Origin: an uncultured bacterium
Lineage (GTDB): Bacteria > Oederibacteriota > PGYV01 > CAWJRG01
Direction: 5' to 3'
Length of the DNA: 64,000 nt
Assembly: GCA_963845185.1 (NCBI GenBank)
Contig: CAWJRG010000010.1
Span: 608,001 to 672,000, forward strand
Within the stretch, counting starts at the first letter, position 1. Each line of letters begins with the position of its first letter. The notes beneath the pieces are model-generated. The model ran no database searches, was not told the origin of the DNA, and saw only the letters and a list, made by a program, of their open reading frames with translations. Shown here in pieces: positions 16,295 through 53,260 of this stretch. Position numbers and translations under genes: made by a program.

Positions 16295-16341
16295 ATGATA
16301 GCGTTTGTTTTATTGAGCCGTCAACAGGCAATGACAAAGCA
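16295..16341 (-). repeat. Two-hairpin leader motif, copy E (RBS-proximal hairpin only)
   Basis: Shares CCTATGATAGCGTTT with the 53 kb copy and AGCCGTCAACAGGC with the 25.2 kb copy; abuts the RBS of the 16280 gene. Confidence 0.75.
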
Positions 16342-16503
16342 CAAAGTACTAATAAATCATATATCCACCCTGTGTATTTTGTCAATCTTCAAATTTTCCG
16401 GACTTTTAGCGTAAGGCAAGTGAATGAGTGGGATAGAAAATAGAGGGTTTTAAAGCAGCACAACTGTGTTCAATGGCCTGCCGGCGCCTGTTATTCAGTA
16501 CTA

Positions 16504-17439
16504 TTATTGATTTGTTTGTCCTGGTCTTATTGTGTCAGTCGCGCCTTTTAGCATCCGGCCAAGAACGCCCAAATATTCTTTTAAATTAATATAAACCGAT
16601 TTTTCAGGCAAAGCAATTTCATGGGGAAAAGGCCTTGAATAAACCGAAGTCAGGGTGTGGTGCAGGACATGTTCCCTCGAATCGCCGTGCGTAAAGAACA
16701 GGAACAATTTTTCCGGCCATGCCGTATCCTTAAGGTTCCGCGCCCAGATATTTCTCTGGTCAAAGCTTCCGTCAACTATCAGGTTGCCGTGCTCTATCAT
16801 CTGCGAATGGTGTATTATAAAACTGTTCAGCCATATGCTGGCGATAAACGGGATTATTACCTGTTTCGCGCTCACTCCGAATGCCAGGTGCGATAATAAC
16901 CCTATACCTGCCAGGAATATTACTATGAATAAAAGCGATAGCAAAGCTTTCCATGCCTTGAATTTTTTCCCGTGCACAGGATGGCCAGGCATGACAAACT
17001 GGGCAAGGAGCGAAATAAAAATAATGCCTATGAATATCTCAAAAAAATTATAAACAGCCCTCAGGAACCTGTTTTTTATTTCGCCTACGGGGTGGAACTC
17101 TGTGTCATCCCATGTATGCACCTTTGAATGATGGAACCCGTGCACCGCGCGGTAAACCTGCGGGTCAGTGATGAGCATCCATGCGTACAGGTTATAAAAC
17201 AGGCCGTTCGGTACATTGGGCACGTATTTGTGCCATGTTTCATGCATCATGTAGCCTGCCCACGTAAAAAGGTATATACCCGGAAATACCATATACAGTA
17301 TAGACCAGTAGCCTGCTTTCGCGCACACCGCAGGCAGGAAAAACAAATAAGCAGGCCAGGCAAAAAGCACAAAATAAAATTTCCACGCCTGCGACCTTAT
17401 CCTTGCTTCAGTTATTGTATTTTCCATTATTTTCTCCAT
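16504..17439 (-). CDS. Membrane fatty acid desaturase-family (His-box) protein
   Basis: Three His boxes HETWH, HGFHH and HVLHH, with TM helices. Confidence 0.8.
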   Translation of the reverse strand: MEKIMENTITEARIRSQAWKFYFVLFAWPAYLFFLPAVCAKAGYWSILYMVFPGIYLFTWAGYMMHETWHKYVPNVPNGLFYNLYAWMLITDPQVYRAVHGFHHSKVHTWDDTEFHPVGEIKNRFLRAVYNFFEIFIGIIFISLLAQFVMPGHPVHGKKFKAWKALLSLLFIVIFLAGIGLLSHLAFGVSAKQVIIPFIASIWLNSFIIHHSQMIEHGNLIVDGSFDQRNIWARNLKDTAWPEKLFLFFTHGDSREHVLHHTLTSVYSRPFPHEIALPEKSVYINLKEYLGVLGRMLKGATDTIRPGQTNQ

Positions 17440-17532
17440 CTCAATATTGATGCGTTATTTAAAATAAGTTTACTTTTAATTAATGGTTTTTGTATCCCAA
17501 AATTCTCCATATAATTGACTTTTATCTATAGG

Positions 17533-17562
17533 TGTAGAGACGTTTTGCAAAACGTCTCTACA
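17533..17562. repeat. GTAG-type REP palindrome
   Basis: Perfect palindrome TGTAGAGACGTTTTGCAAAACGTCTCTACA, the form of RAYT-associated REPs. Confidence 0.75.
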
Positions 17563-17630
17563 TTTAATTATAATTTTTACCTAATTTTAGATTTGTCCGT
17601 GTGGTATTCATCTATTTTTAACCTTCCAAA

Positions 17631-17662
17631 TAAAAAAGCCCGGAGCTTATTACCACAGGCTT
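17631..17662 (-). terminator. Probable intrinsic terminator/attenuator
   Basis: Minus strand AAGCCTG...CGGGCTT imperfect stem followed by a T run. Confidence 0.45.
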
Positions 17663-17666
17663 ATTT

Positions 17667-17719
17667 GCTATCTCATACCTGCTCAAGTCCAAGGCTATAA
17701 CCAAGGGCAAGCGGTACTA
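17667..17719 (-). repeat. Two-hairpin leader motif, copy D (distal hairpin)
   Basis: TACCTGCTCAAGTCCAAGG...GGGCAAGCGGTACTA aligns with TACCCGCTCAAGTCCAAGG...GGACAAGTGGTACTA at 53215-53260. Confidence 0.75.
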
Positions 17720-17759
17720 TTTTTCATTTTGAATTCTATCAGTTTGTTACTTATTTATT

Positions 17760-18137
17760 TTACGCTTTGCCCACCATTAAATATATACTGATAAAAGCCG
17801 AGATGGCAGCCAGCACCGACAGCACTGCGTGTGTGATTTTTATCACATGATTCGCCGGCTTATCAAAACTTAATATTGCGCCTGTCGCGAACAGTCCCAG
17901 GAACAATATGGCTGTGACAACTATCGCGGTGATTATTGCACTGTTTACAGGCATGCCTTTGCTCATTCCCTTTATCACAATTACCATTAATACCACGGTT
18001 GCAAGCGCGATAAGTTTATGCACCGTTAATAATGCGGTGTCCAGCGGCTTGTCCATCCTGCTAAGCCATATGCCTGATACAATAGTAAGAATGAATAAAA
18101 TTCCCGTGCTTAAAATCCTGACGTCCATAAGTTTCAT
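17760..18137 (-). CDS. Hypothetical four-TM membrane protein
   Basis: GGAGG upstream of ATG 18137; four hydrophobic helices with His residues (VHKL, ITHA). Confidence 0.7.
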   Translation of the reverse strand: MKLMDVRILSTGILFILTIVSGIWLSRMDKPLDTALLTVHKLIALATVVLMVIVIKGMSKGMPVNSAIITAIVVTAILFLGLFATGAILSFDKPANHVIKITHAVLSVLAAISAFISIYLMVGKA

Positions 18138-18171
18138 AATCATCCTCCATTTTTTAATAGTATATTCAGGC

Positions 18172-18906
18172 TTACTTTGCTGCTGTACCCGCCGCCACAG
18201 GCTCCTTATCATATCCAAGTGCCTTGCGGATTTCAGCTTTTGATTTTTCAAAGTCAGCCTTGAATTCTCTGCTTTTGAACATGTCAGCCGCGATTAATGT
18301 CGCAGCTATCCTGCCTGCTTCGGCATCGCTGCGGTAATGCACGCCTCCGATAATCCTGTTCACTGCGAATGCCCAGCCGCGGTTGAAAATCTCGGCGCTT
18401 TTTTCCGGCAGCATGTTTGCCAGTATTATGGCCATGAGGTTACCAGCAGCAGAATGCCCGCTCGGGTATGCTGGGTTTACAGGCACCTTGACGCATGGTT
18501 TTACCCTGCTGTCATACACGCTCGGCCTCGGCCTTTTCCAGAAATCTTTTGCCGGGTCTGTTATGTCACGCTCATTGCTGATTAAGTTGTCAAAAAACTC
18601 GGCTGTAAACGGCTGTTTTTCTTTTGTAAAATTTTCTCCAAGTATGTCGCTGAACCTGAAAACAGTAATAGTCTGGTCCGCAATCGCGTAATCGACCATT
18701 TCCTTGGTCCTGTTTTTCTGAAAATCAAGTATTTCCTTTATTTCTTTTTTCGTCTGTATTGAATCCTGCGTAGGCGGCGGTGGCAGAAGCTTTGTCAGGT
18801 CAATGTCAGACGGCGCTATGTAAGTTTTCCCTTTAGCGTACAATACGCCTGCTGCCAGAATTAAGGCAACAGATAAAACCAGCACAATCTTTGAAAATCT
18901 TTTCAT
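18172..18906 (-). CDS. Class A non-specific acid phosphatase (PAP2 superfamily)
   Basis: KxxxxRPRP, YPSGH and RIIGGVHYRSD motifs; signal peptide. Confidence 0.92.
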   Translation of the reverse strand: MKRFSKIVLVLSVALILAAGVLYAKGKTYIAPSDIDLTKLLPPPPTQDSIQTKKEIKEILDFQKNRTKEMVDYAIADQTITVFRFSDILGENFTKEKQPFTAEFFDNLISNERDITDPAKDFWKRPRPSVYDSRVKPCVKVPVNPAYPSGHSAAGNLMAIILANMLPEKSAEIFNRGWAFAVNRIIGGVHYRSDAEAGRIAATLIAADMFKSREFKADFEKSKAEIRKALGYDKEPVAAGTAAK

Positions 18907-18993
18907 GTCTATTCCTCCTTTGTTTATTTACTCCGGACTCAGGACAAAATTTATATTATTTCTGTTATAAAAGAGTTAAAAAAATAATAAGTT

Positions 18994-20388
18994 TTAATAA
19001 TTACTAACGCATGAGCAGGCATAAAAGTCCTGGAAATCCCTGCTTGTCAAAGCGCATTCATATACACGGCTTTTTTCTTTAATCAGCGAATACAGCGTGG
19101 GATTGCTTACCGTATAATATAGAAGGTATTTGTCCAGCTTATCGGCATCGACTGTCATGGACACAGTAAGCGAAAAAAGGCTCTCGGGCGTGTAGTCAAA
19201 GTATCTGTATGCGTCGCAAAACGTGTATTCTAAGGCCCATTTTGCCCTGGTTTGGGCGTCTTTTGCGCCGAACCCGGACAGGTAATACACGGCAGTGTCC
19301 TTTATATCCCCGTCATTTTTTATCAGCGCCAGTTCAAATGCCGGGTTGTTGCCGTGAACCGGGCTTATTGACGGGATAATGCATGTCAAAAGCGCAGGCC
19401 TGCCTGACGGTGAAAACACGCGGAAGTCGTCAAAATGGGAGTGCCCTGCAAACATATTTTTTAAAGCCTTAATGTGGGCTTTCAGGATTTTAAAAAATTT
19501 TTTGTTGTACTCGGGCGCAAGGAACCCGTCATCGCCCTTGCAGTTTTTGTCTTTTGCCGCAAGAAATGTGTCTATTCCCGGCGGTATGTGCATGGCAATG
19601 ATTGCCTTTTTCCCGTTTTTCTCATCCGAGGCAAGCTTGCTTGCCAGCCATTTCATCTCAATCTCGCCCGGGTTGTTATTTGCTTTTTTTGCCTGCCTGT
19701 AATTTTTATGCCAGAAAACGTCGTTTAAAACAATAAGCTCGTTGTTTTCCACACCTGGAAAAAGCAATTCGTAATAACCGCCTTTGTAAAAATCCGCAGC
19801 TGCCTGCCTGTCTGCCTTGACAGTATCAAAATAATCCGCCAAATTCTTTAGCATTGGGCCGCCGGGTACTATATTATAGTCTCCGTTATCAGAGTCGTTA
19901 TTGCCCATGACAAAATATATTGGCTTGCCGGGTAAAGCCTGCTTTATCATGTCTGCTATGAATTCTATGGTTTTTATTGCAAAGGACGGGCATGCGCCCG
20001 CTGCCAGGCCTGAAAGCCTGTATTTAGTCTCGAAATTATGGCATAAAAGGTCCCCGCCTATTATGGCAGAGTTGATGTCCGCGGACATTTGGCTTATTTC
20101 ATCTATTGCGGACAATAGCAGCCGGTAGTTTGTGTCTTTCATGTAGGCCGGGAAATCCCCCTGCTTCTGTTTTTCCAGTACTGCGCGCCATCCGCTTATC
20201 GGCGTTTTTTCAAGCTCTTTGGCAGCGCCGTCAACAAAAGGATCGAAATGTATGTCTGACAGGAGCAGAACAACAGTTTCTTTTTCTGTATTATTGGCTG
20301 TATTCCACGGCAGTTCAATGCCTGATGCTTTAAAGCATAAAGCAACAACAAGAATAAAAATCAATATAAATAATTTTATTTTTCTCAT
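18994..20388 (-). CDS. Secreted calcineurin-like metallophosphoesterase, acid sphingomyelinase-like
   Basis: SDIHFDP, GGDLLCH, GNND, MHIPPG, AGHSHFDDF, PSISPVHGNNP. Confidence 0.85.
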   Translation of the reverse strand: MRKIKLFILIFILVVALCFKASGIELPWNTANNTEKETVVLLLSDIHFDPFVDGAAKELEKTPISGWRAVLEKQKQGDFPAYMKDTNYRLLLSAIDEISQMSADINSAIIGGDLLCHNFETKYRLSGLAAGACPSFAIKTIEFIADMIKQALPGKPIYFVMGNNDSDNGDYNIVPGGPMLKNLADYFDTVKADRQAAADFYKGGYYELLFPGVENNELIVLNDVFWHKNYRQAKKANNNPGEIEMKWLASKLASDEKNGKKAIIAMHIPPGIDTFLAAKDKNCKGDDGFLAPEYNKKFFKILKAHIKALKNMFAGHSHFDDFRVFSPSGRPALLTCIIPSISPVHGNNPAFELALIKNDGDIKDTAVYYLSGFGAKDAQTRAKWALEYTFCDAYRYFDYTPESLFSLTVSMTVDADKLDKYLLYYTVSNPTLYSLIKEKSRVYECALTSRDFQDFYACSCVSNY

Positions 20389-21107
20389 TTTATTCCTTTC
20401 TTTTTTATACTAAGATAGGTTTTTGCGCCTTTTAAAAATTCATATCCGGTCTTTTCCAGTGAAAAAGCTACACCCGCAAGCTCCCTGTCTTTTTTCAGCA
20501 TATCCACATACCCGCATTTTTCTCCTGCCATGTTGCACGCCGGATATATCCGTATCTCTTTGGAAGTGATACGGATTAGCTCCTTTATTACGTCCCTGTG
20601 AAACCCGTAGGAGAGTTTGTCCTCAAAAAGAAAAAGCAAATGCGACATAAGTGTCATAGTGAACTGCTTATTTTTAAACGGGGATTTTGGAAAATCCGCG
20701 TAAACATAAAGTTTTTTGCCGTATCTTTTATAGTCATCAATGAATAAATCAAGCGCCTTTTGCCTGAATGTCATGAGCCTTTCCGGATTTTTATAATACT
20801 CCCACCTGTATTTGTGCAGCACAGGATCCAGTTCTTTCGTTACTGTGGCAATATCCGCCTCGGATTTTTTGTAAAGCTTCCCCGCCGGAATAGCATAAAT
20901 ATTATCCGAGCCTGTTACGTCCATGCCCTTTGCGCGCGCCTCTGCAGTGAATGAACTTACTCCGCTGCCAGCGTCAAGGATCTTTTCTTTTTGCAGGTTG
21001 ATATTTTTTAGGTTGAACATTTTATCATACTCGTCAAACACCCTGCCTATAAGCATTATTTTTTTCAGGTTTATCTGTTTTTGTTTCATGCAGCCTTCCT
21101 GATGCAT
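20385..21107 (-). CDS. Class I SAM-dependent methyltransferase
   Basis: ILDAGSGVSSF motif I; SHLLFLF; overlaps the next gene by ATGA. Confidence 0.8.
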   Translation of the reverse strand: MHQEGCMKQKQINLKKIMLIGRVFDEYDKMFNLKNINLQKEKILDAGSGVSSFTAEARAKGMDVTGSDNIYAIPAGKLYKKSEADIATVTKELDPVLHKYRWEYYKNPERLMTFRQKALDLFIDDYKRYGKKLYVYADFPKSPFKNKQFTMTLMSHLLFLFEDKLSYGFHRDVIKELIRITSKEIRIYPACNMAGEKCGYVDMLKKDRELAGVAFSLEKTGYEFLKGAKTYLSIKKKGIK

Positions 21108-21255
21108 TATCTTTTTAAATCTTTTACTAGTTTTAAGGAAAATAATACAGGCTCCTACTTATTTTACCGCCAGAAATACGCCGAATTTTAAATAAAACCA
21201 TATCATCGAGTATTTTTTAAAGCCTGCTTTTTTGAGAACCGACGATTACTCCTTG

Positions 21256-21633
21256 TTATGTATTTATTTTATAATACTTTTTATCGTGGACGCAGAGAAT
21301 TCCTTTTTTGGAAACCCACTTCTTATTTTCTTTTTCTATGAATTTTTTTATCCCTTTCTCCTTGATATACACCAGGTTTTCAATCTCGCTCATGCCATAG
21401 CGCGTCCGGTACCTTTTATCCAGCCGCTGTAACCTGTCGCACGGGAATTCAACACAGCTAAAGCAGAATTTTCCTTTGCGTTTTGTGCAGATCCGCAGCC
21501 TGCAATGTTCGCGGGATTTAGGCCGGTTTTGCCCGGCGTAAGTGCAGCCATGGCAGGGGTTGTTTTCCCGTAAATGTGCCCTGCATATATTGCAGTTCAT
21601 CCCGCATGGTGCAATAAGGTCTTTTCGTTCCAT
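21256..21633 (-). CDS. DUF3795-like Cys-rich protein
   Basis: APCGMNCNIC, CHGC, CRLRIC, CFSCVEFPC; AGGAGG before ATG 21633. Confidence 0.8.
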   Translation of the reverse strand: MERKDLIAPCGMNCNICRAHLRENNPCHGCTYAGQNRPKSREHCRLRICTKRKGKFCFSCVEFPCDRLQRLDKRYRTRYGMSEIENLVYIKEKGIKKFIEKENKKWVSKKGILCVHDKKYYKINT

Positions 21634-21705
21634 GATTCCTCCTGAATAAAATATTTTAGGATACATAGGATACAATTGAGAAAAGCATATATAAATTTAT
21701 TTTAT

Positions 21706-21776
21706 GGGTGAAGTAGCGGCTATACGTAAATCACAACTTTAACTATTGTTACGACGATCTTGCTGCTACTTCACCC
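21706..21776. repeat. Long intergenic inverted repeat (15-bp arms containing GTAG/CTAC)
   Basis: GGGTGAAGTAGCGGC ... GCTGCTACTTCACCC, 14 of 15 Watson-Crick pairs plus one G-T. Confidence 0.6.
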
Positions 21777-21881
21777 TTTCCTAAGTCCTCTTCCATCGAG
21801 GGAGAGGGAGCCCACCAACTTTGTTGATAGGCAACGAGTAAAACCATAAACTAATCCTGCCACAATCATTTATATATAATA

Positions 21882-23384
21882 TTATTCCTCTTTCTTTTGG
21901 TAATCAAACCAGTCAAAGTCAGCCGGGTTTTGGCACGGCTTGCCGTTTCCGCTCGCGTACATCGCCAGATACACTCCTGTAAATCCGCCTGCCACTTCTG
22001 TCGAGAGATAACGCGTTTCGCCCTCACCCAAAAGTTTCAGGTCGTTTTCGGATGGACCGTAAGAGAACATGTATTTATTGCGGTCCGCCTCTATGGAGAG
22101 CACCCAGTTCAAAGCCTGTGGAAGGACATGGCACGCCACCTCTGCCTGGAGGCTGCCTATCCGCCTCCGCAGCACAACGCTTTCCTGCCCGTTGCGCATG
22201 GTTACGAAGATTTCATAATGATGCTTCTCGTTCATACGCACTGTTATCCCTGCTTCCTCGTTATCTGTTTTCGGCTGGAACTCCAGGCACGCCATTGCTT
22301 TCAGCGCGAAATGGCATTGCCGCCTGCCCACCCATGCAGGCGACGCAACATCGTCGAGCCCGTCCTTTGACCCGTGCATACGCAAATATCCCGGCCGCTC
22401 GTCGAGAGAATAAAGCGCTGGTTCCGGGTTGCGCAGGAAATTCCAGCAAAGGGCAAACCTTATTGAATCGAAATCGTCGCGCATTGACGAGTCAGTCTCC
22501 GGCTCAAGCGCTAAGCCCGTTTTCATTTCCAGCGCCACATGCCCATGGTCGCCAATCATTGGAAAGCCGTCTTCCAGCCATGCGACAGGGCTCAGGAATG
22601 TCTCGCGGCCAAGGTGATAACATGGCGGGTAGCCATTGGGACGGACGCCGAGAAAGACCGCGAACCAGATATTGTTTATTTCAACCAGGTCTGCATGCCC
22701 GGTTGCCTGGATTGGGCTGTTAAAACTCCTGTGGCTGAGGATTGGATTGCGGCCGCATGATACAAATGGCCCCCACGGGCTTTTTGCGCGTGCCACTACT
22801 GCCATGTGCCCGTACTCAGTGCCTCCCTCGGCCATAAGCAGATAGTACCAGTCGTCTTTGTGATACAAGTGCGGAGCTTCAGCATACTGCCCGCCTGTGC
22901 CTGTCCACACGACTTTCGGTTCAGACAGAAGCTTGCCGCTTTTGACATCAATGCGGCTTTGCAGCGCCCCGCCGCTTGAGGTAGTATATAGGACGCTCCC
23001 GTCTTTGTCGAAAAACAGAGACGGGTCAATGCCCTGCTGCTTTATTGGGATGGGCTCTGACCACGGCCCTTCCGGTGCCTGGCTGGTAACTATGAAGTTT
23101 CCGCCGGATGATACATTTGTTGTTGTCATGTAAAAGGTTCTGTTATTGTGGCGCAGCGTCGGCGCGTAAATGCCGGCTGAGGCGCCTGCACCTGTGAGTG
23201 GCAGCTGGCTTTGCCGGTCCAGGCAATGTCCGACTTGGCGCCAGTGTACAAGATCGCGGCTGTGAAAGATTGGTACGCCGGGAAAATATTCGAAACTGCT
23301 TGTAACCAGATAGAAATCGCTGTCGACCCGGCAGACGCTCGGATCCGGATAAAAACCAGGCAATACGGGATTTCGGTATTTCAT
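21882..23384 (-). CDS. GH43 beta-xylosidase/alpha-L-arabinofuranosidase with C-terminal beta-sandwich
   Basis: NPVLPGFYPDPS, TSSFEYFPG, GIDPSLF, EAPH, EGGTEYGH, GRET, GGFTG. Confidence 0.93.
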   Translation of the reverse strand: MKYRNPVLPGFYPDPSVCRVDSDFYLVTSSFEYFPGVPIFHSRDLVHWRQVGHCLDRQSQLPLTGAGASAGIYAPTLRHNNRTFYMTTTNVSSGGNFIVTSQAPEGPWSEPIPIKQQGIDPSLFFDKDGSVLYTTSSGGALQSRIDVKSGKLLSEPKVVWTGTGGQYAEAPHLYHKDDWYYLLMAEGGTEYGHMAVVARAKSPWGPFVSCGRNPILSHRSFNSPIQATGHADLVEINNIWFAVFLGVRPNGYPPCYHLGRETFLSPVAWLEDGFPMIGDHGHVALEMKTGLALEPETDSSMRDDFDSIRFALCWNFLRNPEPALYSLDERPGYLRMHGSKDGLDDVASPAWVGRRQCHFALKAMACLEFQPKTDNEEAGITVRMNEKHHYEIFVTMRNGQESVVLRRRIGSLQAEVACHVLPQALNWVLSIEADRNKYMFSYGPSENDLKLLGEGETRYLSTEVAGGFTGVYLAMYASGNGKPCQNPADFDWFDYQKKEE

Positions 23385-23496
23385 ATGCGCTCCTTAAAGT
23401 CAAAGGTTGGAACTCAATTATTGATATTTTATCAGATAATGTAGGAAAATCAAGGTAATGAAATAAACAGGGTGTGGGATACCTCAAGGTTTGGAC

Positions 23497-23528
23497 ACCC
23501 CCCCTTAACAAGGGGGCTTAAGGGGATT
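23497..23528. repeat. CCCCCCTTAACAAGGGGG palindromic repeat, copy 1
   Basis: Same core recurs at 42180-42210. Confidence 0.65.
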
Positions 23529-23547
23529 TGCTGTATAGGAGCCCTTG

Positions 23548-24612
23548 TTATTTGACGCTTTTCAAAAGTCCTATCTTATACGGCAGCAAATGATACTCTA
23601 AACCATTGCTCGCAGGATCCCTGCCCTGGAAAAGCATCTGCAGATTATCCGGGTCTATTGTCAAAGTCTCATCATAACCATCGCGTATAAGCTCTCCGTG
23701 GCTTATGTCCTTTGTCCATGGATTTACGCCCTGCTCAAACGTCACATTGTTGATTCCGGCAAAAGGCTCTTCCCATGTGGTTGCCTGCTCTTTCCATTCG
23801 CCGTCAAGCGAGTCCGCAACAAAGCTCCTGTAATACCTGTCCCAGGAATCGCCGTTTGCCGCCTCTATTATGGTCAAATACTTGTCCTGTCCCTTTATGT
23901 GATAAGTGCAGCTGCCCTCATAGAACATGCGTTTGTCGCTGTTATGCAGTACTGCAACCGCATCGCTCATATTATTCGGGAAGTCCTCTATCTTTGTCCT
24001 GCAGCGGTAAAAATGGCCGTTGTCGCCTGAAAAGAAAAGATAGGCGTATTTGCTGTCGCATATGACCCAGAAATCAAGCCATTCGGGCCCCCACTGACCT
24101 TTTTCCAGCCCGGAAGGCGCTGTCTTGAAAAAATCCTGCGGCTTTGTCCAGCCGCCGGGGTTGTCTATGTTGTCGTTTGTCGAGTATTGGGGCTGGCCCG
24201 ACTGGAATATCATGTACCATTTCTTCTGCGGGGTAAAATAAAAAACTTCGGGCGCGCAGTGGTATCCCTGCAAATTCGGGTTGTTGTCCTTTGAATATGC
24301 CTTTGCTTTTTTAACGTCTTTCCAGTCCTTGAAGCTTATGAACTGCATGCTCCATGCGCCTGCCTTATCGCATGTTGTATAAAACACATACCATTTGCCG
24401 TTGTAAAATACCACTGACGGGTCCTTTGCAGATACTATTTCGCGGCCTTTTTCAGGCTGTGGCAATATGACAGGCTCGCCTGTAGTCCATTGGAACCTTG
24501 TATTTTCATCAAATCCCTTTATCACCGGTGCACCGCCTTTTTCCGTAGTTGCTGATACGCATGACAGCATCAGAAAAATTAATATGATTATTACATATAA
24601 TTTTTTCAACAT
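23548..24612 (-). CDS. GH62 alpha-L-arabinofuranosidase, secreted
   Basis: KDPSVV, APEVFYFTPQKKWY, LDFWVICD, YEGS, WTKDISHGELIR. Confidence 0.9.
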   Translation of the reverse strand: MLKKLYVIIILIFLMLSCVSATTEKGGAPVIKGFDENTRFQWTTGEPVILPQPEKGREIVSAKDPSVVFYNGKWYVFYTTCDKAGAWSMQFISFKDWKDVKKAKAYSKDNNPNLQGYHCAPEVFYFTPQKKWYMIFQSGQPQYSTNDNIDNPGGWTKPQDFFKTAPSGLEKGQWGPEWLDFWVICDSKYAYLFFSGDNGHFYRCRTKIEDFPNNMSDAVAVLHNSDKRMFYEGSCTYHIKGQDKYLTIIEAANGDSWDRYYRSFVADSLDGEWKEQATTWEEPFAGINNVTFEQGVNPWTKDISHGELIRDGYDETLTIDPDNLQMLFQGRDPASNGLEYHLLPYKIGLLKSVK

Positions 24613-24631
24613 ATTGAACCTCCTGTTTTTT

Positions 24632-25174
24632 TTACAGCGTTTTTATCCAGTCCTTGCTTGTCAATACTTCAGCCTGCCTCGGGAATATTTTTTCTGTCAA
24701 AACCCTGTGCACTTCAGGGTCCGCATCGCTGCACAAATCCGACAGGATGGTGAGCTGTAAATCCTTGTCTGCCGCTTCCCTTGTAGTTGACAATACCACA
24801 CCGCTGGTGGCTATGCCGCAAAGTACAAGGTACCGGATGTCCATGGAACGCAGCACCACCTCAAGGTCGCTCCCGCTGAACGCGCTGACCCGCCGTTTTG
24901 TAACAACGACATCGCCGGCAATTGGCTCTATGGCAGGAGCTGGGTCGACCATATTGCCAAGCGGCGACTCCTTTATCCTGCTAAAGCTCTTGTTCTGCGG
25001 ATTTATTTCCGGGAAACCCGGCCTGAACCCAACCACAACATAGATGACAGGCACCTGCTTGCTGTGCGCCGCGTCTATCGCGGGCCTTAATTTTGCCAGA
25101 TACTCGTCTTTTTTCTCCAGCCTGCTTAATGTCCCAGGCTGTACATCCATAACCAGTAACGCGCTTTTACTCAT
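24632..25174 (-). CDS. Isochorismatase-family cysteine hydrolase
   Basis: ALLVMDVQ, KRRVSAFSGSDL, GIATSGVVLST; GGAGG before ATG 25174. The usual Cys nucleophile position reads Val. Confidence 0.88.
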   Translation of the reverse strand: MSKSALLVMDVQPGTLSRLEKKDEYLAKLRPAIDAAHSKQVPVIYVVVGFRPGFPEINPQNKSFSRIKESPLGNMVDPAPAIEPIAGDVVVTKRRVSAFSGSDLEVVLRSMDIRYLVLCGIATSGVVLSTTREAADKDLQLTILSDLCSDADPEVHRVLTEKIFPRQAEVLTSKDWIKTL

Positions 25175-25185
25175 GTTTTGCCTCC

Positions 25186-25293
25186 TTGGTATCGTTTGTT
25201 TTACCAAGCCGTCAACAGGCGCCGGTAAAACATTACGAGACCAAGCACCCGGTCAAGTCCGAGACTTTTAAGTCGAGGACGAGAGGTGCCAGT
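25186..25293 (-). repeat. Two-hairpin leader motif, copy B (complete)
   Basis: Aligns end to end with 53159-53260 with compensatory stem changes; ends at the GGAGG of the 25174 gene. Confidence 0.8.
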
Positions 25294-25304
25294 ATGTTTT
25301 TGTT

Positions 25305-25385
25305 GTAGGGGTAATTCACGAATTACCTAGTCGTTGTTATTTCTTCAGTTTTGGGCAGTTAAATAGTCCTGTGGACTATTTAACG
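25305..25385. repeat. REP-like palindromes
   Basis: GTAGGGGTAATTCACGAATTACC and GTTAAATAGTCC-TGT-GGACTATTTAAC. Confidence 0.55.
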
Positions 25386-25423
25386 GGTAGTTTCCATAAA
25401 TCATCATATTAATAACTACCCTG

Positions 25424-25477
25424 AATATTACGCTATCATGTACCCGCTTAAGTCCTCGGCTACAGCCGAGGACAAGC
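25424..25477 (-). repeat. Two-hairpin leader motif, copy C (partial)
   Basis: 25 nt AATATTACGCTATCATGTACCCGCT identical to the 53 kb copy, then the GTCCTCGGC-TACA-GCCGAGGAC hairpin. Confidence 0.8.
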
Positions 25478-25521
25478 TTTAATATATACTATTCTATTTT
25501 GTATTTGGCATTTATAGGGCT

Positions 25522-26226
25522 TCAATTTCCTGTTTCATAGGAATTTACTGAATTGCATTGCCATGTTACTGTACCATCCGTTGTGCTGACTGTGCAGATT
25601 GCTTCATTCATTATCACCGCAGAACAAATACCCCAATCGACCGACGGTTGATAATAATAATATTTAATATCGGATGTATATGCGCCCGCAGTTTGTGTGA
25701 CATCAGAGCTGTATATATCTTTTACCTCACCCGGATAAGAGACGGGGCCGTAGCCGCTGCAGTTCTCGTTAAGCAGCCAGTATTCCGCGAATTCCTTGAC
25801 TGCTGCTGTTGATGTTACAGATTGCAAAACCCTTGTTGAGGGATCATAATAACTACAATTATAAACTCTTTGTTGAAAAACCGGATTTGCGTTCCAGTCG
25901 CGTTCGTAATACATGCTTGTTGCGCGCTCGGAATATGAGGTATAACCCCAGGCATTAACCGTATTTGAATAATCAAAAATAGCGTCTGCCTGGACCGTTG
26001 TGCTCGCGCATACAAAAGAATAATAATAACAGGTAGATACAGGCGGTGTTGTATCTATATAAAATCCGGCCGGATACAAAAAATTACCGCTTTGCGCGTT
26101 CGAAATAAGGGTATTTGCTTCGGGTGCAATGGATCTTTTGCAATTATTGTTGTTCTTCCTGCAGCTCCAGCAACCGCTGCTGAATATCATAGCTAAAGCT
26201 GCAAGTATGATTAATAGTTTTTTCAT
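25522..26226 (-). CDS. Hypothetical Tyr/Cys-rich lipoprotein
   Basis: MKKLLIILAALAMIFSSGC lipobox, AGGAGG RBS, consensus promoter upstream. Confidence 0.75.
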   Translation of the reverse strand: MKKLLIILAALAMIFSSGCWSCRKNNNNCKRSIAPEANTLISNAQSGNFLYPAGFYIDTTPPVSTCYYYSFVCASTTVQADAIFDYSNTVNAWGYTSYSERATSMYYERDWNANPVFQQRVYNCSYYDPSTRVLQSVTSTAAVKEFAEYWLLNENCSGYGPVSYPGEVKDIYSSDVTQTAGAYTSDIKYYYYQPSVDWGICSAVIMNEAICTVSTTDGTVTWQCNSVNSYETGN

Positions 26227-26256
26227 GACCGCCTCCTTTTCCTTTAGTTTTATATA

Positions 26257-26285
26257 ATTATATCCCTTATTGACAGCCCTGTCAA
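26257..26285 (-). promoter_or_regulatory. Consensus sigma70 promoter with overlapping palindromic operator
   Basis: TTGACA-17 nt-TATAAT on the minus strand; TTGACAG-CC-CTGTCAA dyad at 26270-26285. Confidence 0.7.
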
Positions 26286-26316
26286 ATTCCTTTCCGTATA
26301 AAAGGCCTTAAGGGGG

Positions 26317-26345
26317 TTGCCTAAATGCCGGCTGTTGGCTATAAT
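26317..26345 (+). promoter_or_regulatory. sigma70 promoter, leaderless architecture
   Basis: TTGCCT-17-TATAAT, then 6 nt to ATG 26352; no Shine-Dalgarno. Confidence 0.65.
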
Positions 26346-26351
26346 AAACAC

Positions 26352-26837
26352 ATGGATTCCAAAACTGTTATAGAACTATATAAGTCGCTGGAAAACATCG
26401 GCATTCAGATATGGATTGACGGCGGCTGGGGTGTCGATGCCCTTTTGGGCAGGCAGACACGCCCGCATAAGGACCTGGACATAGCTGTCCAGTGGAAAGA
26501 TGTTCCTCTGCTCCGTGAATTCATGGAGGCTAAAGATTACAAACAAATCAAAGAAGACAACAAATGGAACTTTGTACTGGCCGATACTGGCGGCAATGAG
26601 CTTGATGTACATGCCTTTGTTTATGATGACAAGGGCAATGTGGTAGACGGAATCATGTATCCTGCCGAATCCCTCACAGGCACTGGCTCTATAGATGGCC
26701 AGGTTGTAAAATGCATCTCTTCCCAATATATGGTTGAGTTCCTGACTCCGTGGATGAGCAAATATCCGGAAAAATACAAACAGGCTGTTTTTGATTTGTG
26801 CAAGAAATTTAACATACCCGTTCCCGGTTGGAATTAA
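26352..26837 (+). CDS. Lincosamide/aminoglycoside nucleotidyltransferase family (Lnu/ANT(2'')-like)
   Basis: WIDGGWGVDALLGRQTRPHKDLD signature, ELDVH; 161 aa from ATG 26352. Confidence 0.85.
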   Translation: MDSKTVIELYKSLENIGIQIWIDGGWGVDALLGRQTRPHKDLDIAVQWKDVPLLREFMEAKDYKQIKEDNKWNFVLADTGGNELDVHAFVYDDKGNVVDGIMYPAESLTGTGSIDGQVVKCISSQYMVEFLTPWMSKYPEKYKQAVFDLCKKFNIPVPGWN

Positions 26838-26874
26838 AGGCAGAATTCGGCATCTTTCCTTTCTTCATGCAATA

Positions 26875-29439
26875 TCATTTCCCATCCCAGACGTATGTTC
26901 CGCCCTTTTCCAGCTTCAATTCACGCTCGTTTTTACCGTAACGCAATTTTATCGTATCGCCTTCCAAAGACCGGACCTTTGCCGAGACAAGTTTTCCATC
27001 TTGCCATGATATGTCCACTTCAAAGCCGCCCCGTGCGCGCAGTCCCTTCACACTCCCATTGGGCCATGCTTTCGGCAGTGCGGGAAGCAGGTTGATGATC
27101 CGGATGACGTTGGCCGAATCTCCGGTTTCCATCTCGTGGCTTTGCAGCAGCATCTCTGTTATGCCTGAAACCGCGCCGAAATTGCCGTCAATCTGGAAAG
27201 GCGGATGCGCGTCAAGGAGATTCGGGTAAGTACCGCCTCCTGTGTCGAATGAGCTGCCATGGCTGCCCGGCGCGCTCAGCAGGTTCGTCAGCATAACATA
27301 AGCGTGGTCGCCTTCGAGCAGCCTTGCCCATAAATTCATTTTCCACGCGAGGCTCCAGCCTGTGCCAGCATCGCCGCGCGCACGCAGCGTGACCTTCGCT
27401 GCGTTAAATAAATCCGGAGTACCGCTTTTGGTAACCTGGCTGCTGGGGAACAGCGCGTAGAGCTGCGAAACATGGCGGTTGGTATCGTTCCAGCTGTCAA
27501 CATCCTCCAGCCATTCCTGGAATTGGCCCCATTTACCGGTCTGGAACGGAGGCAGTTTCGCGCGCAATGCCAGGATTTTCCTTTGGAACTTTTCATCTTT
27601 GGAAAGTATCCTGGCCGCCTCAGCAGTCTGAGCGAAAAGGTCGCGCAGGATGCCGTTATCCACCGCGGGCCCGGCGCATAAGCCGCCGTTCTCCGGGGAA
27701 TACGACGGGCATGTCACAAACCAGCCCTTATCAATATGCCTTGGATCCTGTACCAAAAAATCAATAAAAAATTCACATGAGCCTTTCATCAACGGATAAG
27801 CCCGTTTTAAAAACACCTTATCTCCGGTGAAAAGGTAGTGCTCCCAGAGGTGTGTACAAAGCCAGGCTCCGGCCAGCGGCCATTGGCTCATAGGAGGAAA
27901 ATCCACAGGCGCGGTGCCGCGCCAGAGGTCGGTATTATGATGTACCACCCAGCCGCCCGCGCCATACATTTTTTTTGCGGTTACTGCGCCGGCACTGGAC
28001 AGGTCTGCGATCATCGCAAACAGCGGTTCGGCGCATTCAGAGAGGTTGGCGCTCTCGGCTGGCCAGTAATTCATCTCCGTGTTGATATTGACGGTATATT
28101 TGCTTCCCCATGCCGGTGACATCGGCGATCCATAGTAGTCCCGTCCGCTCATATCGAGTTCTCCGGTTTGGAAATTCGCCCCGTTCCATATACCCTGCAG
28201 GTTCGCCGGCTGGCCGCCCGGGCGGCTGCATGCGATAAGCAGGTAGCGTCCAAACTGAAAGTAAAGCGCTGCCAGGCCGGGATCTCCGCCTTTTGCAAAA
28301 CCGGATATGCGTTCGTCGGTCGGTTTGCCGGCGCTATCGGTACTGCCGAGATCAATCGATACGCGCCCGAACAGGGCCTGGTAGTCGGCGAGATGTTTTT
28401 CTTTGAGTTTAATATACGTTTTTTTCAGCGCTGAGCCCAGTATCGCCCCGGTTTTTTTCTTCGCGTCGCCTGAAACATCATGGTAGTTTTTGAAATTCGT
28501 TGCGCCTGAAATGATAAGCGTCGCCGAATCCGCCCCCTTGATAATAATCCCGCCATCCGTAACAGTGAACGTCCCTCCCTCATGCATTGTCGCCAGCCGC
28601 GCATATGCCGTAATGGCGGCCGGCACATCCACATCAGGAATGTTGGCGCAGGCAGACTTCGGCATCTGGTCCGGAAGCCACCATTCCTTGGTGGTCCGCT
28701 TGTAATCTTTTCCCATTCCTTTCATCATAAGCGTGTTTCCGTCAGCGCTTTGCCTGAATCCCGGCAGGGGCGAGGCAAACGACGCGTTGAAACTCACGCA
28801 GCCGGGTTTGTCCGCCGAGATGTGTACTACGATTATTCGATCCGGGTAACTGGCGAAAACTTCGCGGGTATAGATGACATTTTCAACTTTATATGTAGTC
28901 ACGGCCATGGCTGTATCCAGATCAAGCCAGCGCTTATAGTCCGTAACTGCGGCAACAGGATCCGGGAATGTCAGCAGCAGGTCTCCTAAAGGAAGATAGG
29001 ATGTTTCCTTCATCGGCTGGCCCATGGCGTTCTGGTAAAGAAGCCCGCAGGCTTCCGACAATGCCGCAGGTGTGCCTTCAAAAACCAGTTTCCTGGCCTT
29101 GTTGACAGCGTTAAACGCCGTGTCCCGCGCCGGTGTATATGGCCCGCCGGACCACACAGTACCTTCATTAAGCTGGATATTTTCCGTATCAATGCCGCCA
29201 AAAACCATGGCGCCCATATACCCGTTGCCGATTGGCAGCGCCTCATACCAGTTCTTTGCGGGCTGCCTATACCATAGGATATAGCGGCCCTCGGGCCCTT
29301 TATCCGAGCCGTAAATCATTTCAGCGGATTTTGAATCCACAGCCGGAGCGCAGGCTGCGGAGGTTGCCAGGACAAGCCATGTTACTGTAAAAAGGAATAA
29401 AATCATTGCCCTTCCGTTTCCTGTCATATAATATGACAT
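26875..29439 (-). CDS. GH95 alpha-L-fucosidase/alpha-L-galactosidase, secreted
   Basis: [56 protein letters not shown]. Confidence 0.95.
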
Positions 29440-42353: not shown

Positions 42354-42431
42354 AATTACCATACAATGTGCAATACTATACAATTTGTATGGTAATTATT
42401 TCTTGACAACAGTTACCATACAATATATGCT
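42354..42431 (+). promoter_or_regulatory. sigma70 promoter with three TTACCATACAA operator boxes
   Basis: TTGACA 42403-42408, 17 nt, TATGCT 42426-42431; boxes at 42356 (forward), 42385 (reverse) and 42413 (forward). Confidence 0.75.
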
Positions 42432-42465
42432 AATTCAAATAATGTATGATAACGAGGTGAGTACA

Positions 42466-44604: not shown

Positions 44605-45203
44605 ATTTGTCCTCCTAAATGGAATTTTAGGGTGCTTTATATACTACTAAACAGAAAAATTGTCAATAAAAAACCCCTCTGGTAAAAAAAGTTGAGCGGG
44701 ATAGATTCGGACTTCTAACATAAAATGATAGTGCAGTTACATATGTTTCAGTCTTTTTTCTACTTTATGTTTCAAGATCAAGGGAAAAACGAGGTTTATT
44801 GCGGATGGGGCCCATGTATTAGTCATTTCATTCCGGAGCCCTAAATCCTGTACCACTCATTTCGTCTGGGTGCAGGACTTGCCCGAGTTATAGTGAGTTT
44901 TAACCTTGAACTTGAGCTACAACGAATAGGTGAGAGGAGAATGTTTTAGAGTTTAATTTATAATCTAAATGTTCTAATAATACTTTCAATAATTTGTTTT
45001 ATGATTGATATTTCCATCCTCTTATCTTTGAATAAGCTTTAAATACTGGATCCGAGAATCTATAGCATTTATTACGAATTTTTATTAATATTGGGGATTT
45101 TGGATCTGCCGTTAATTCCTTCATTAGCTGCGAAGGATTTGTGATTCCCATTTCTTTTACGGTAGCATAAATACTTTCTGTATCCATTTCATCATCAGTA
45201 GTA

Positions 45204-49969: not shown

Positions 49970-50432
49970 TATTTTAACTTTAATTTTTTGTCATAAAAGA
50001 TTTGTTCATGATTTTTACTCATATTTTTCACCTCTAATTAACATTCGCATATCAAAAGTAGTTTAAAATTCACAGTTTTAAGCATTTAAATTATACGCCT
50101 CATTGTTTATCGCGTCAATAATATTTGAAATCTTATAAAAAATATTAATGATTTTAATTAAAAATTGACAATTCAAACCAATTTTCCATTTCAAATTTGG
50201 GATTCGAATGCCAAATCCTATACCAGCCGTTTACCCATGTACCAGTCTTTTCATTCCGGTACATGGCCCTAAACCCGAACCATAAGTGAATGGTTTAGGG
50301 CTACTTCGTCCACCATACATTTTTAACAATTTCCAATTCTCAATTCCCAATTTTCAATGAAAAATTTTTGTGTCCTGCACATTTCGTTTACAAACAAAAT
50401 CATTTAATATGTTAAAACCCTTACCATTATAT

Positions 50433-50975
50433 TTATTGAGGAGATTTGTATAATTCCAATAATGTACTTACTGCTTTATCATATTTTGGAGTTGTAGTCC
50501 CTACAACCTTTGTGCTTATAGTTGGTGTCGCATTTGCAATAGCTACGGTTTGCATTATTGCAAATCCTTTTGCAATTTTTGCGACAGCCAGGCTTTGGGA
50601 ATCGATAAAATTTTGCAGGGCAAGTACACCTTTGAGAGCCTCATCGCTGCACGGGGTCATACGCAGTGTTTCGAGCGCGCTTTTTAACTTAAGTTTCAGC
50701 CGGATTGAATCCTGATCCAGTGTTTGCTGAAAATTAGTGATTTCATTCTTTGTATTAACAGAAATTTGGCCGCTGCCCAGTACATTTGCTACATTTGAAA
50801 CTGCCAATGCCACGGAAGTATCGTACCCTTGAGTATAATCAGCAAAATCTTTTGAAACATCTATGTCTCTTACAGGCTCTCCGTTCGCGCATCTAATTGG
50901 GCATCCACAGCATGAACTTATTACTAATACAGATACTAATAATAACAGTAAACATAAAAATCGTTTTGTATTCAT
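50433..50975 (-). CDS. Hypothetical lipoprotein
   Basis: AGGAGG before ATG 50975, MNTKRFLCLLLLLVSVLVISSC lipobox. Confidence 0.65.
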   Translation of the reverse strand: MNTKRFLCLLLLLVSVLVISSCCGCPIRCANGEPVRDIDVSKDFADYTQGYDTSVALAVSNVANVLGSGQISVNTKNEITNFQQTLDQDSIRLKLKLKSALETLRMTPCSDEALKGVLALQNFIDSQSLAVAKIAKGFAIMQTVAIANATPTISTKVVGTTTPKYDKAVSTLLELYKSPQ

Positions 50976-51668
50976 TATTACCCTCCTTTTACTTTTTTTA
51001 TATGCCTTAAACTTCCTCTTTATCTTTCCGCGGGCACAAATTCCATTCAGTAATTTGTATTTGGCATTTGGGATTCGAACGCCTAATGCCAAACCCCTAA
51101 CAATGGTGCTACTCCAAATAATTGCATTTTTACAATTCTTCTTTGTCTTTCCACGGGCACGAGGAATAAGGTCTCATCGTGAATGAAAAATCGCAGGACG
51201 TGTCAAAAACCGGTGATTCCCTTTTAAATCCCAGTACTTTTAATCTTGTATTGATTTCAAGGGCATTATTATTATTCATCTGTTTAAGCCTGCAGAAACA
51301 TACCGTAATCAGCTCATGCCTGCCGAAAGTCTTTAAGGATTCTTTTTTCTTTGCTATATTTTTGCAATTCATTTGTACACTTTACCCCTGCAGGCGGACT
51401 CCGCCTGCTGTATAACTAACTGTATCCCTTAATATTTGTTTTGTCAAGGTGAAAGCACCCCCCGGGTGTTGCAGGGATAAATAAAACAAGGCAGGCCAAG
51501 GGGGGTTTGGAGGGGAATGGGGGATAAAGGCCTGCCCTGTGTATTCATCTCTAAATTTTTATCTTTCGCATTAAATGATACATTAATAATTCCGGTATTT
51601 CAAGAAACAAAATCAACTTTTCATACTCTTTTTTCTTCCACGGGATTTAACTGATGATTGCCCGCATA

Positions 51669-53147
51669 TTATTTCAGTACAATAAATTTATCAACCCTGC
51701 TAAAATTTGTTGTCTTTCCTTTTTGCTTGTATGCTATAAAATATATGCCGCTTGCAAGGTTTTGCACGTTGATTTCAACGGTATTTACCCCTGCGTTCAA
51801 ATTCTGGCTAATTTTTCCTATCAACCTGTATGCCGCTGTATAAATGGTTAATTCTATATTGGCGTCTTCTGTGATGTTAAATACATATTTAAGCTTGTCT
51901 TTTGCAGGGTTTGGATATATCAGCGACTTGCCAGGCGCAACTGCCAGGGGAGGAGGGGTCGGAGCCGGGCATAGCGGTTGCGCCGTCCCTGTCAGCCATG
52001 CCAGAACATCCGCGCCGTGGCACGAGGTGGGCGTATAGCTCCAATCCTTTATGAGTGTGGGCCCTGAATACGGGTTCAGGTCCCATGCAGTCGCGTTGTA
52101 CATGTAATTCGCGTTATTGCCGCCGTCAAGCCATGAAATAAAGCTGGACTCATACGGGTTGCACCCGCTGTCGTCCCAGCCGCAGCAGTTGCCTTCGTTG
52201 TTTGTGCCGCCCATTAAAGACCCGAATTCCCCTACTATGACGCAGTAACCGGCGTTCACTGCCACCCCTACATACTGGTCCCAGCTTGCCGCGTCATTGT
52301 TCCCCGGGTTGCCGTAATATATATGCGCGTCATAAGCTATGCCGTAACCTGTCAGGGTGTTGCCGGTGTTCCTGTCCGTTATCGGATTCGACGGTACTCC
52401 GGTCAGGTCATGCGCCCAGACCAGGCCGTCCACAATGGCTATATTCTTCGCACCTGTATCGCGGATAGTCTCTACCATAGTCTGGTATCCCGGGCTGACA
52501 AAACTGCCGGTCCAGCCGCCGTTCTGCCATGTGGTCAACGGCATATAAGTCGGCTCATTATAAAGGCCGAAAAGCACAGCAGGGTTATTGCCGAATGTCA
52601 CGGCAAGGCTCTGCCAGAACACCAGGGCATTCATGTCACACATGGCCGGCCCGGTTGCCTGCACAGAAGTGGAAGTACCCCATGTGCCAAGGCCTGACCA
52701 GTGCAAATCCAGGATCACATAGCAGTTGAGTGCCGACGCAGTGTTTACCATATCGGCAACAAGGGTTCTGTAATTGCTCTGGTTTGTCAAATCCTGCGTG
52801 GTAGAGGAAGATGTTACGCCGTTACTGTAGCCAAACCAAAAATCCTGGTTTAAGGGTATCCTTACGATATTGGCTTTCCATGTGTTCACTGCCACGGTTA
52901 TTGACTGTGTCATATCCCCGCCTGGCCCGCTTGCCAGGCCTTTGCCGTCCGCTTCCCATTCCAGCCCGTCCACGTTTACGCCCACGAGCCTTACAGGGCA
53001 GCCGGTCGCCGCGTTTACAAAGTATTTTCCCGACACCGCAAGCTGCGGAGGCGCCGCAATAAGGACTGTATTTATAAGGAATATGCATGATAATGCTGTG
53101 AAGGTTATAAATATAATCTTTGGTACTAGATTAATGCTCTTATACAT
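51669..53147 (-). CDS. GH5 glycoside hydrolase (endoglucanase-like) with T9SS-like C-terminal domain
   Basis: LVGVN, NIVRIPL, YVILDLHW, LYNEP, VGEFG; C-terminus IYPNPAKD...LASGIYF. Confidence 0.9.
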   Translation of the reverse strand: MYKSINLVPKIIFITFTALSCIFLINTVLIAAPPQLAVSGKYFVNAATGCPVRLVGVNVDGLEWEADGKGLASGPGGDMTQSITVAVNTWKANIVRIPLNQDFWFGYSNGVTSSSTTQDLTNQSNYRTLVADMVNTASALNCYVILDLHWSGLGTWGTSTSVQATGPAMCDMNALVFWQSLAVTFGNNPAVLFGLYNEPTYMPLTTWQNGGWTGSFVSPGYQTMVETIRDTGAKNIAIVDGLVWAHDLTGVPSNPITDRNTGNTLTGYGIAYDAHIYYGNPGNNDAASWDQYVGVAVNAGYCVIVGEFGSLMGGTNNEGNCCGWDDSGCNPYESSFISWLDGGNNANYMYNATAWDLNPYSGPTLIKDWSYTPTSCHGADVLAWLTGTAQPLCPAPTPPPLAVAPGKSLIYPNPAKDKLKYVFNITEDANIELTIYTAAYRLIGKISQNLNAGVNTVEINVQNLASGIYFIAYKQKGKTTNFSRVDKFIVLK

Positions 53148-53158
53148 AAAGCTCTCCT

Positions 53159-53260
53159 ATGATAGCGTTTATTTTGTCGAGCCAAAGGCAGCAACAAAAT
53201 ATTACGCTATCATGTACCCGCTCAAGTCCAAGGCCACAAAGGCGAGGACAAGTGGTACTA
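53159..53260 (-). repeat. Two-hairpin leader motif, copy A (complete)
   Basis: GTACC..GGTAC hairpin followed by ATGATAGCGT..ACGCTATCAT hairpin ending at AGGAG; sits downstream of TTAACT-17-TATAAT (53278-53306). Confidence 0.8.

Follow-up and report, generated by a model that had tools for sequence, protein, structure and literature searches.

The stretch of DNA analysed here (the window) comprises 64,000 nucleotides (nt) of contig CAWJRG010000010.1 of an uncultured bacterium and contains five copies, A to E, of a two-hairpin element of about 100 nt. A covariance model built from 27 copies of the same genome and run over the whole window with the filters off matched exactly the five places listed in an earlier note on this DNA, all on the minus strand; the sole further match was a plus-strand echo of the palindromic hairpin 2. 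The shared orientation described in that note is thus borne out, and because all neighbouring genes lie on the minus strand, we take this strand, the sense strand of the genes, as the functional orientation. All window features given below are on the minus strand.

Copies E and B are full elements, in which hairpin 1 is followed, after a linker of 2-4 nt, by hairpin 2. Copy E (53153-53260) scores 118 bits with the covariance model (E 6e-27) and matches positions 1-100 of the nhmmer profile (E 3e-24), and its fold is better than those of 200/200 shuffles (z -4.9). Copy B (25180-25291; 102 bits) also folds better than 200/200 shuffles (z -3.5); the outer stem of its hairpin 2 contains a single C-T mismatch. 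In both copies, the Shine-Dalgarno sequence (SD) stands directly after hairpin 2, with the start codon 6-7 nt past it, and the SD is unpaired in the minimum-energy folds. The site at copy E (53145-53158) consists of the SD AGGAG (53158-53154) and the ATG (53147-53145) of the gene 51669-53147, which encodes a glycoside hydrolase family 5 (GH5) protein with a type IX secretion system (T9SS) tail (Pfam Cellulase and Por_Secre_tail). At copy B (25172-25187), the SD AAGGAGG (25187-25181) and the ATG (25174-25172) belong to the isochorismatase gene 24632-25174 (Pfam Isochorismatase).

Copy A (16289-16381) is a degraded remnant, in which hairpin 2 alone is represented, by its loop and 3' arm (16341-16295), followed by the SD AGGGAG (16294-16289). 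Its covariance-model match is weak (13 bits, E 0.27), and BLAST aligns 28 nt at 89%. The ATG at 16280-16278 starts a lipoprotein gene with an FGE domain (Pfam FGE-sulfatase), whose product has a lipobox-like signal at its N-terminus. The end of hairpin 2 therefore coincides with the SD of the GH5, isochorismatase and FGE-domain genes, as had been noticed from the letters alone. The promoter-like boxes reported before copies A and E are also present, at 16356-16385 (TTGACA-18-TATGAT, 11/12 matches) and 53278-53306 (TTAACT-17-TATAAT, 10/12 matches), but such matches of the pattern scan are no commoner than in shuffles.

The two remaining copies contain hairpin 1 without a complete hairpin 2. In copy C (25403-25484; 30 bits, nhmmer positions 5-59), hairpin 1 and the 5' arm of hairpin 2 are recognizable in the fold, and the element is broken by a second repeat of ~68 nt with two hairpins (25354-25421; BLAST and fold), nested where hairpin 2 breaks off. 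BLAST finds >50 copies of this second module in the genome, and many of them immediately follow position ~72 of the main element, a point within hairpin 2. The module is a nested, site-specific insertion or else an alternative 3' domain spreading as part of a composite; in one case (C11:63520-63460) it stands directly 5' of an SD. Copy D (17667-17719) is hairpin 1 only, 41 nt past the stop of the open reading frame (ORF) 17760-18251, and matches nhmmer positions 1-50; the covariance model gives 35 bits over 17626-17719. The terminator-like stem claimed to follow copy D is seen in the fold, between an A-run and a T-run (17627-17667), but it is absent from a simple terminator scan, and the stretch folds no better than shuffles (z -0.8).

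The copies lie in a minus-strand cluster of polysaccharide-degradation genes (13393-29439 and 51669-55015). Its genes encode GH95, GH43 with a C-terminal lectin-like domain, GH62, the GH5 protein with its T9SS sorting tail, the FGE-domain lipoprotein, a metallophosphoesterase and a major facilitator superfamily transporter.

Fold and covariation of the element

In hairpin 1, a conserved asymmetric internal loop separates the outer stem (YACC/GGTR) from the inner stem (GTCC/GGAC), whose tip is variable. The outer helix of hairpin 2 is variable and leads through a small conserved internal loop to an A/U-rich inner helix, which is topped by a small apical stem. The stem differences between copies E and B are compensatory, as the earlier note had stated, and can be read directly in both sequences. 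In alignment A1, which holds the 27 copies from this genome and is the basis of the covariance model, 95.4% of the cells are paired, compared with 85.9 ± 0.6% in shuffles, and 0/500 shuffles reach this value. Double changes occur at 21/31 pairs (9.7 ± 1.7 in shuffles), and slid controls are 30-42% paired. The outer helix of hairpin 2 occurs in discrete variants, each of which is internally complementary. The order-wide alignment A2, with 23 copies from other genomes and 5 from this one, keeps the same fold, with up to 17/28 sequences doubly changed at single pairs. Its invariant positions form a short list and are located in the hairpin-1 loop and on both sides of the hairpin 2 internal loop. 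The pairs with the highest mutual information are nested helix pairs, and we found no convincing tertiary pair or pseudoknot outside them.

The element matched no Rfam family. A search of the whole window against Rfam 15, as proposed in the earlier note, gave 0 matches at gathering scores; below these scores, with E-value limits of 10 or 1 for copy E and 12 loci, the matches that appeared (microRNA, snoRNA and small RNA) were all at chance level, and none recurred across the loci. No ribozyme family in Rfam matched the element. Examined by eye, neither hairpin fits the motifs of a K-turn, loop E, attC core or group II domain 5. We found no description of this RNA in the literature, on the narrow basis of the Goldbacteria noncoding-RNA literature. 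For about half the copies, a three-codon mini-ORF that ends at the invariant internal-loop TAA can be read in the 5' arm of hairpin 2 (53205-53216 in the window, and the same place elsewhere); it is probably meaningless because no SD precedes it.

The fold might serve as RNA or as DNA. An ordinary DNA-level repeat, such as a repetitive extragenic palindrome (REP), a MITE (miniature inverted-repeat transposable element) or an IS200/IS605 derivative, would present its hairpins to a transposase as single-stranded or cruciform DNA and would have no RNA role. The earlier note had considered a role of single-stranded DNA because the wobble pairs seemed to favour opposite strands in the two hairpins. 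This remark does not generalise, since the non-Watson-Crick cells of hairpin 2 show no strand preference genome-wide (G-U 92, A-C 87, other 177). Such strand-symmetric mismatches would fit a DNA repeat. Against it, one U-G pair of hairpin 1 is retained on the gene-sense strand in 128/139 copies and would turn into a C-A mismatch if the opposite strand folded; this near-invariant pair argues for a sense-strand fold. A single-stranded-DNA role is still conceivable.

Copies across the genome and beside native Shine-Dalgarno sequences

The genome of the window (3.50 Mb in 11 contigs, 42% G+C, 99.4% complete) holds 186 copies of the family, ~150 of them near full length, as found by nhmmer iterated to convergence (E<1e-3); the covariance model matches 141 among the 150 candidates scored. 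Among 139 full copies, the median identity to the nearest neighbour is 88% and the all-pair identity is 68%, and >=99% to a neighbour is reached by only 7 copies. We conclude that the family is old and diverse and did not arise in a recent burst.

The orientation of the copies, which the earlier note had asked to be scored, is far from random: 160/186 (86%) are co-oriented with the downstream gene (p 1e-24), and 141/186 with the upstream gene. Judged by the conditions set in the earlier note, this orientation and the strong covariation distinguish the family from an ordinary REP. Distances to start codons were scored as well, as that note had proposed. The start codon of an ORF of >=80 amino acids (aa) lies 3-13 nt (mode 8-9) past the copy in 111 of the 162 copies that are complete at the 3' end, compared with 15% in both controls (24/164 for antisense starts measured from the 5' end, 296/2000 for random intergenic positions). 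The remaining 51 are followed by a tandem unit (14), a terminator-like hairpin (1) or other sequence (36), and at least 8 of the last group precede, by eye, an SD and ATG of a shorter ORF.

Leader copies with a full 5' end (n=96) have a co-oriented upstream ORF in 83 cases and a divergent neighbour in 13. Between the upstream stop and the element, the gap in those 83 is <=30 nt (22 copies), 31-100 nt (18 copies) or longer (43 copies); the element thus occurs both within operons and in 5' untranslated regions (5' UTRs). The 60 nt 5' of 161 copies are A-rich and contain no fixed -10 box. The family also forms head-to-tail arrays, the longest being seven units with an exact 100-bp period at C9:916571-917178 (minus strand); the relative G014 has arrays of three and two units at C31:7611-7911 and C20:95229-95421.

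The downstream genes have no function in common. Of 24 downstream proteins scanned, 20 match unrelated Pfam families, and they include a LysA-type decarboxylase, MurC, ArgG, IlvD, FabD, GatC, PstB, PhoU, Dcd, PFK and a response regulator. The element is therefore not a riboswitch: a ligand-sensing leader, one of the suggestions in the earlier note, is difficult to reconcile with 186 copies that share no downstream pathway and whose folds, in E and B, leave the SD unhidden.

To compare filled and element-less sites, we used the orthologues of argG, murC, ilvD, fabD and lysA from five genomes in four other families of the order. The element is absent from the orthologous junction in 4/4 cases for argG and in 5/5 each for murC, ilvD, fabD and lysA (cases with the 5' end on the contig), and at those junctions the upstream gene or the promoter region is conserved. 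An nhmmer search of the five loci (E up to 1) returned only the loci of this genome and one unrelated hairpin-1 fragment in L164. The SD and spacer of argG share 12 consecutive bases with G014, those of ilvD share 14/15 bases with G004, and all six genomes keep the lysA -10 region, which in this one is upstream of the element. The conserved SD and spacer and the lysA promoter therefore indicate that the SD is the gene's own and that the element entered between the promoter and this SD, immediately 5' of the SD. In G014, G019 and G003, the intergenic regions upstream of argG and fabD (L141, L142, L162-L164) have short tandem or palindromic repeats of their own, which are unrelated to the element.

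These junctions bear on a further suggestion of the earlier note, a REP or cassette-junction element that supplies leaders to acquired genes. This suggestion is supported in a modified form, as a dispersed, oriented leader element. The element is not a cassette junction because copies occur at housekeeping genes in synteny conserved across families; the genes are not specifically acquired, and the SD is not supplied by the element. An integron attC site is likewise inconsistent with five copies in 37 kb and with positions 5' of such genes (no integrase search was made).

Small-RNA-type copies in relatives and possible routes of spread

Outside this genome, the covariance model (E up to 1e-3) finds the element in 11/23 other genomes of the order, with 1-19 matches each; it finds none in 17 genomes from the phylum's other orders. 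When species-representative genomes were scanned with a pattern, 11 stretches were returned, 10 of which are in three metagenome-assembled genome (MAG) records with the titles 'candidate division FCPU426 bacterium', 'uncultured bacterium' and 'bacterium'. The covariance model does not match the remaining stretch, from a Terriglobia record, which apparently lies in coding sequence; we took it as a chance match. A phage origin was tried as well, and the same scan gave 0 matches in viral contigs. The SD-abutting layout recurs in two copies of G001 (family f2) and in 3/3 copies on metagenome contigs whose GH43 is 77-92% identical to that of the window, where the element abuts the SD and start codon.

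A different layout is found in the sister family f10 (genomes G014, G023, G020 and G019). There, the end of a TATAAT-like box lies 5-7 nt 5' of hairpin 1, a strong hairpin follows 18/19 terminal copies, usually between an A-run and a T-run, and the folds comprise three hairpins (z -7 to -10). In one f10 subfamily, ~35 nt of upstream sequence belongs to the repeated unit. Of 21 f10 loci, 19 are antisense to both flanking, co-oriented genes, as read from crude ORFs and Pfam, and no neighbouring protein gene recurs beside them. The loci themselves recur: a RadC/TPR locus in three genomes, an FtsK/PGM locus across two genera, and Fer4 and pilin loci in two; their stems differ between genomes but the differences are compensated. 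With the -10-like box, the terminator and the antisense layout, the f10 copies look like free-standing small-RNA genes. As sequence patterns, an own promoter and an own intrinsic terminator are both present at the sister-family copies, to which this comparison was confined. Many f10 copies (L037, L041, L042, L046 and others) have a conserved, predicted-unpaired UCCUC, similar to an anti-SD, in the apical internal loop of hairpin 2; this apical UCCUC is absent from the copies of this genome.

The use of one fold both as a small RNA and as a leader raises the possibility of a global cis-regulatory system, in which hairpin 1 would be the site for a lineage-specific RNA-binding protein or nuclease that controls >100 mRNAs, and the small RNAs of the sister families would be its decoys or substrates. 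Consistent with such a regulon, the hairpin-1 internal loop and two short motifs flanking the inner helix of hairpin 2 are invariant across the order where the helices vary, the copies are placed exactly at translation-initiation regions, and hairpin 1 also occurs alone, as in copies C and D of the window. On the other hand, the downstream genes have no common function, their sister-family orthologues work without the element, degraded copies such as A persist before intact genes, the mismatches of hairpin 2 look neutral, and a recurring protein gene is missing beside the 21 sister-family loci. We therefore consider a regulon rather unlikely, without regarding it as negligible.

How the element spread can be approached from the enzymes present. 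Insertion 3' of a pyrimidine run resembles the target rule of IS200/IS605 elements, and on the opposite strand every insertion of the element is 3' of such a run (CTCCT here, a T-run in f10). The high copy number, the tandem arrays, the partial copies and the nested second repeat would also suit the DNA-level repeat introduced above. However, the Y1 transposase (PF01797) was not found in this 99.4%-complete genome, and in the 14/23 other genomes of the order that have it, mostly as ORFs of ~320-345 aa, none adjoins an element match. The idea of an IS200/IS605 derivative fails this key test, and the element does not fit the gene-less derivatives of that group (PATEs) on the same grounds. REP or BIME units, associated with RAYT proteins, are 20-40 nt palindromes present in both orientations, as opposed to a unit of ~100 nt with 160/186 copies co-oriented, and they too would call for PF01797. 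A MITE would have terminal inverted repeats and a target-site duplication; the element ends, as read from the alignment, are not complementary to each other and hence not inverted repeats, and the evidence for target-site duplication is weak. In addition, the sense-strand U-G pair is conserved, and the sister-family copies look transcribed. A purely DNA-level repeat thus seems very improbable to us.

A second candidate enzyme is a reverse transcriptase. PF00078 occurs in only 2/24 genomes of the order, with six copies in this genome and one in G013. The six copies belong to a group II intron of ~1.93 kb (Rfam RF02005 and RF00029), 99.4-99.8% identical among themselves, of which there is also one degraded copy. 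Outside the window, the intron copies are located at C9:699931-701857(+), C9:813089-811164(-), C9:846928-845005(-), C10:385233-383312(-), C10:831383-833306(+) and C11:63458-61535(-), with the degraded copy at C1:269908-269104(-). All seven stand directly after GGAGG-N5-7-ATGA and before an A-run, and in our own reading the joined exons begin with MKK, after which comes a hydrophobic signal or lipoprotein peptide, so that translation starts of genes for secreted proteins seem to be the homing sites of the intron. At two of the seven sites, the two-hairpin element is also present, 5' of that SD.

Such an enzyme allows a scenario in which the leader copies would be retro-copies of the small RNA, a bacterial counterpart of the eukaryotic SINEs. 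The leader copies correspond to the RNA body of the sister-family genes without promoter and terminator, and the sole genome with a large expansion is the sole one of the 24 with a multi-copy reverse transcriptase. The 3' end of the element is joined to a purine run in both layouts (AAGGAG here, A7-9 opposite the terminator T-tract in f10), and such a junction would be expected from microhomology priming of reverse transcription at a pyrimidine-rich DNA end. The purine-run junctions and the missing promoter and terminator thus make an RNA-mediated route conceivable, on the strength of one genome and an analogy; we hold retro-copying itself to be improbable.

A probable promoter-less leader and its described counterparts

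With fair confidence, we favour the reading that the element belongs to a lineage-specific family of ~100-nt structured RNAs, whose promoter-less body has spread as a co-transcribed leader 5' of native SDs. In the sister family, the module would be an independent small-RNA gene, equipped with a -10-like box and a terminator of its own. In the lineage of this genome, the body without promoter and terminator would have been copied to well over 100 sites, and the copies would have landed in the sense orientation immediately 5' of a pre-existing SD. The element would then lie between the promoter of the gene, or the preceding cistron, and the ribosome-binding site, and from this position it would be co-transcribed as a 5'-UTR or intercistronic leader. 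The SD is predicted to stay single-stranded right after hairpin 2. The likely effect would be that of a structural 5' cap or insulator, which may protect the 5' end of the mRNA or of a processed cistron and keep upstream sequence off the SD. Many copies are probably tolerated passengers.

Several points weigh against this reading. We infer transcription, processing, the effect on mRNA or expression and the way of spread from sequence, and the gene coordinates come from a crude longest-ORF picker (2785 ORFs). No mobilising enzyme for the element was identified among the candidates examined, and the excess of target-site duplications over shuffles is at best marginal (2 nt, 30 versus 24.8 ± 2.7; 4 nt, 7 versus 2.3 ± 1.4). 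Among the compared genomes, which all belong to other families of the order, there is no exact filled-versus-empty junction. The window's own sites are not comparable, the metagenome contigs with 88-92% identical GH43 keeping no synteny with the window. The mismatch spectrum of hairpin 2 is, in our judgement, close to that of neutral single hits, which counts against selection acting on every copy at the RNA level. Although the copies are only 68% identical pairwise, their hairpin-1 core hardly varies, and this could reflect per-copy selection for a trans-acting partner, more than a passenger would require. In our reading, the structure is selected in the source copies and many individual copies drift.

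We compared the element with structured repeats that share some of these features. The ERIC/IRU repeats of enterobacteria and the BOX/RUP repeats of Streptococcus pneumoniae are structured intergenic repeats of ~100-130 nt; transcribed together with neighbouring genes, they can influence the stability of the mRNA. These families are found in either orientation, and their distance from genes varies; the element, by comparison, is 86% co-oriented with the downstream gene and has a fixed distance to the start codon. The ends of IS200/IS605 elements and the PATEs bear hairpins, are strand-specific and insert beside a short specific sequence without duplication; here there is no Y1 gene, and no copy of the element flanks the Y1 genes of the relatives. 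RiboJ, a self-cleaving ribozyme plus hairpin engineered to stand just before the ribosome-binding site (RBS), standardises the 5' context of genes. The element resembles it in placing a stable hairpin directly 5' of an unpaired SD across many different genes, and differs in being natural, in having no known cleavage activity and in matching no ribozyme family.

Among the repeats described by Delihas 2011 (PMC3184786), the nearest analogue is Neisseria REP2, which resembles the element in behaviour without the element being a member of that family; no sequence relationship is claimed. In that account, REP2, together with the similar IR-A/IR-B of Borrelia plasmids, is dispersed in intergenic regions, lacks terminal inverted repeats, is predicted to form two internal stem-loops as RNA and lies directly 5' of ORFs at the ribosome-binding site, as part of the 5' UTR. 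REP2 is described there as 120-150 bp long, with ~26 copies and its own promoter, RBS and ATG. The element, by contrast, is ~100 nt long, has 186 copies, is promoter-less here, uses the gene's own SD and has small-RNA homologues in relatives; the lack of a fixed -10 box 5' of 161 copies and an SD and spacer orthologous to those of element-less relatives set it apart from REP2. The mycobacterial MIRUs, in the same review, are 40-100 bp long, intercistronic and co-transcribed with the operon, and their absence from the homologous site of a related species suggests insertion. They show short direct repeats and imperfect terminal inverted repeats, and they overlap the flanking ORFs. The element differs in lacking inverted termini and a clear duplication and in keeping a constant position 5' of the SD. 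Relative to the repeats described there, nucleotide-precise insertion 5' of the native SD at >100 genes, together with small-RNA homologues in a sister family, appears to be a new combination.

The element is a member of a rare kind of 'leader repeat' and not a riboswitch, an integron junction or an ordinary REP. About 4% of the genes of this genome carry one foreign structured leader, including the essential murC, argG, ilvD, fabD and gatC, which amounts to a natural genome-wide experiment in the standardisation of 5' UTRs. It offers a handle on how a small mobile RNA or DNA module could be aimed at translation-initiation regions, on whether a small-RNA gene may become a dispersed cis element, or the reverse, and on how bacteria tolerate or use structured leaders. 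It also represents a new order-wide structured RNA in a candidate phylum, whose invariant internal loop would be expected to have a protein partner or a catalytic role.

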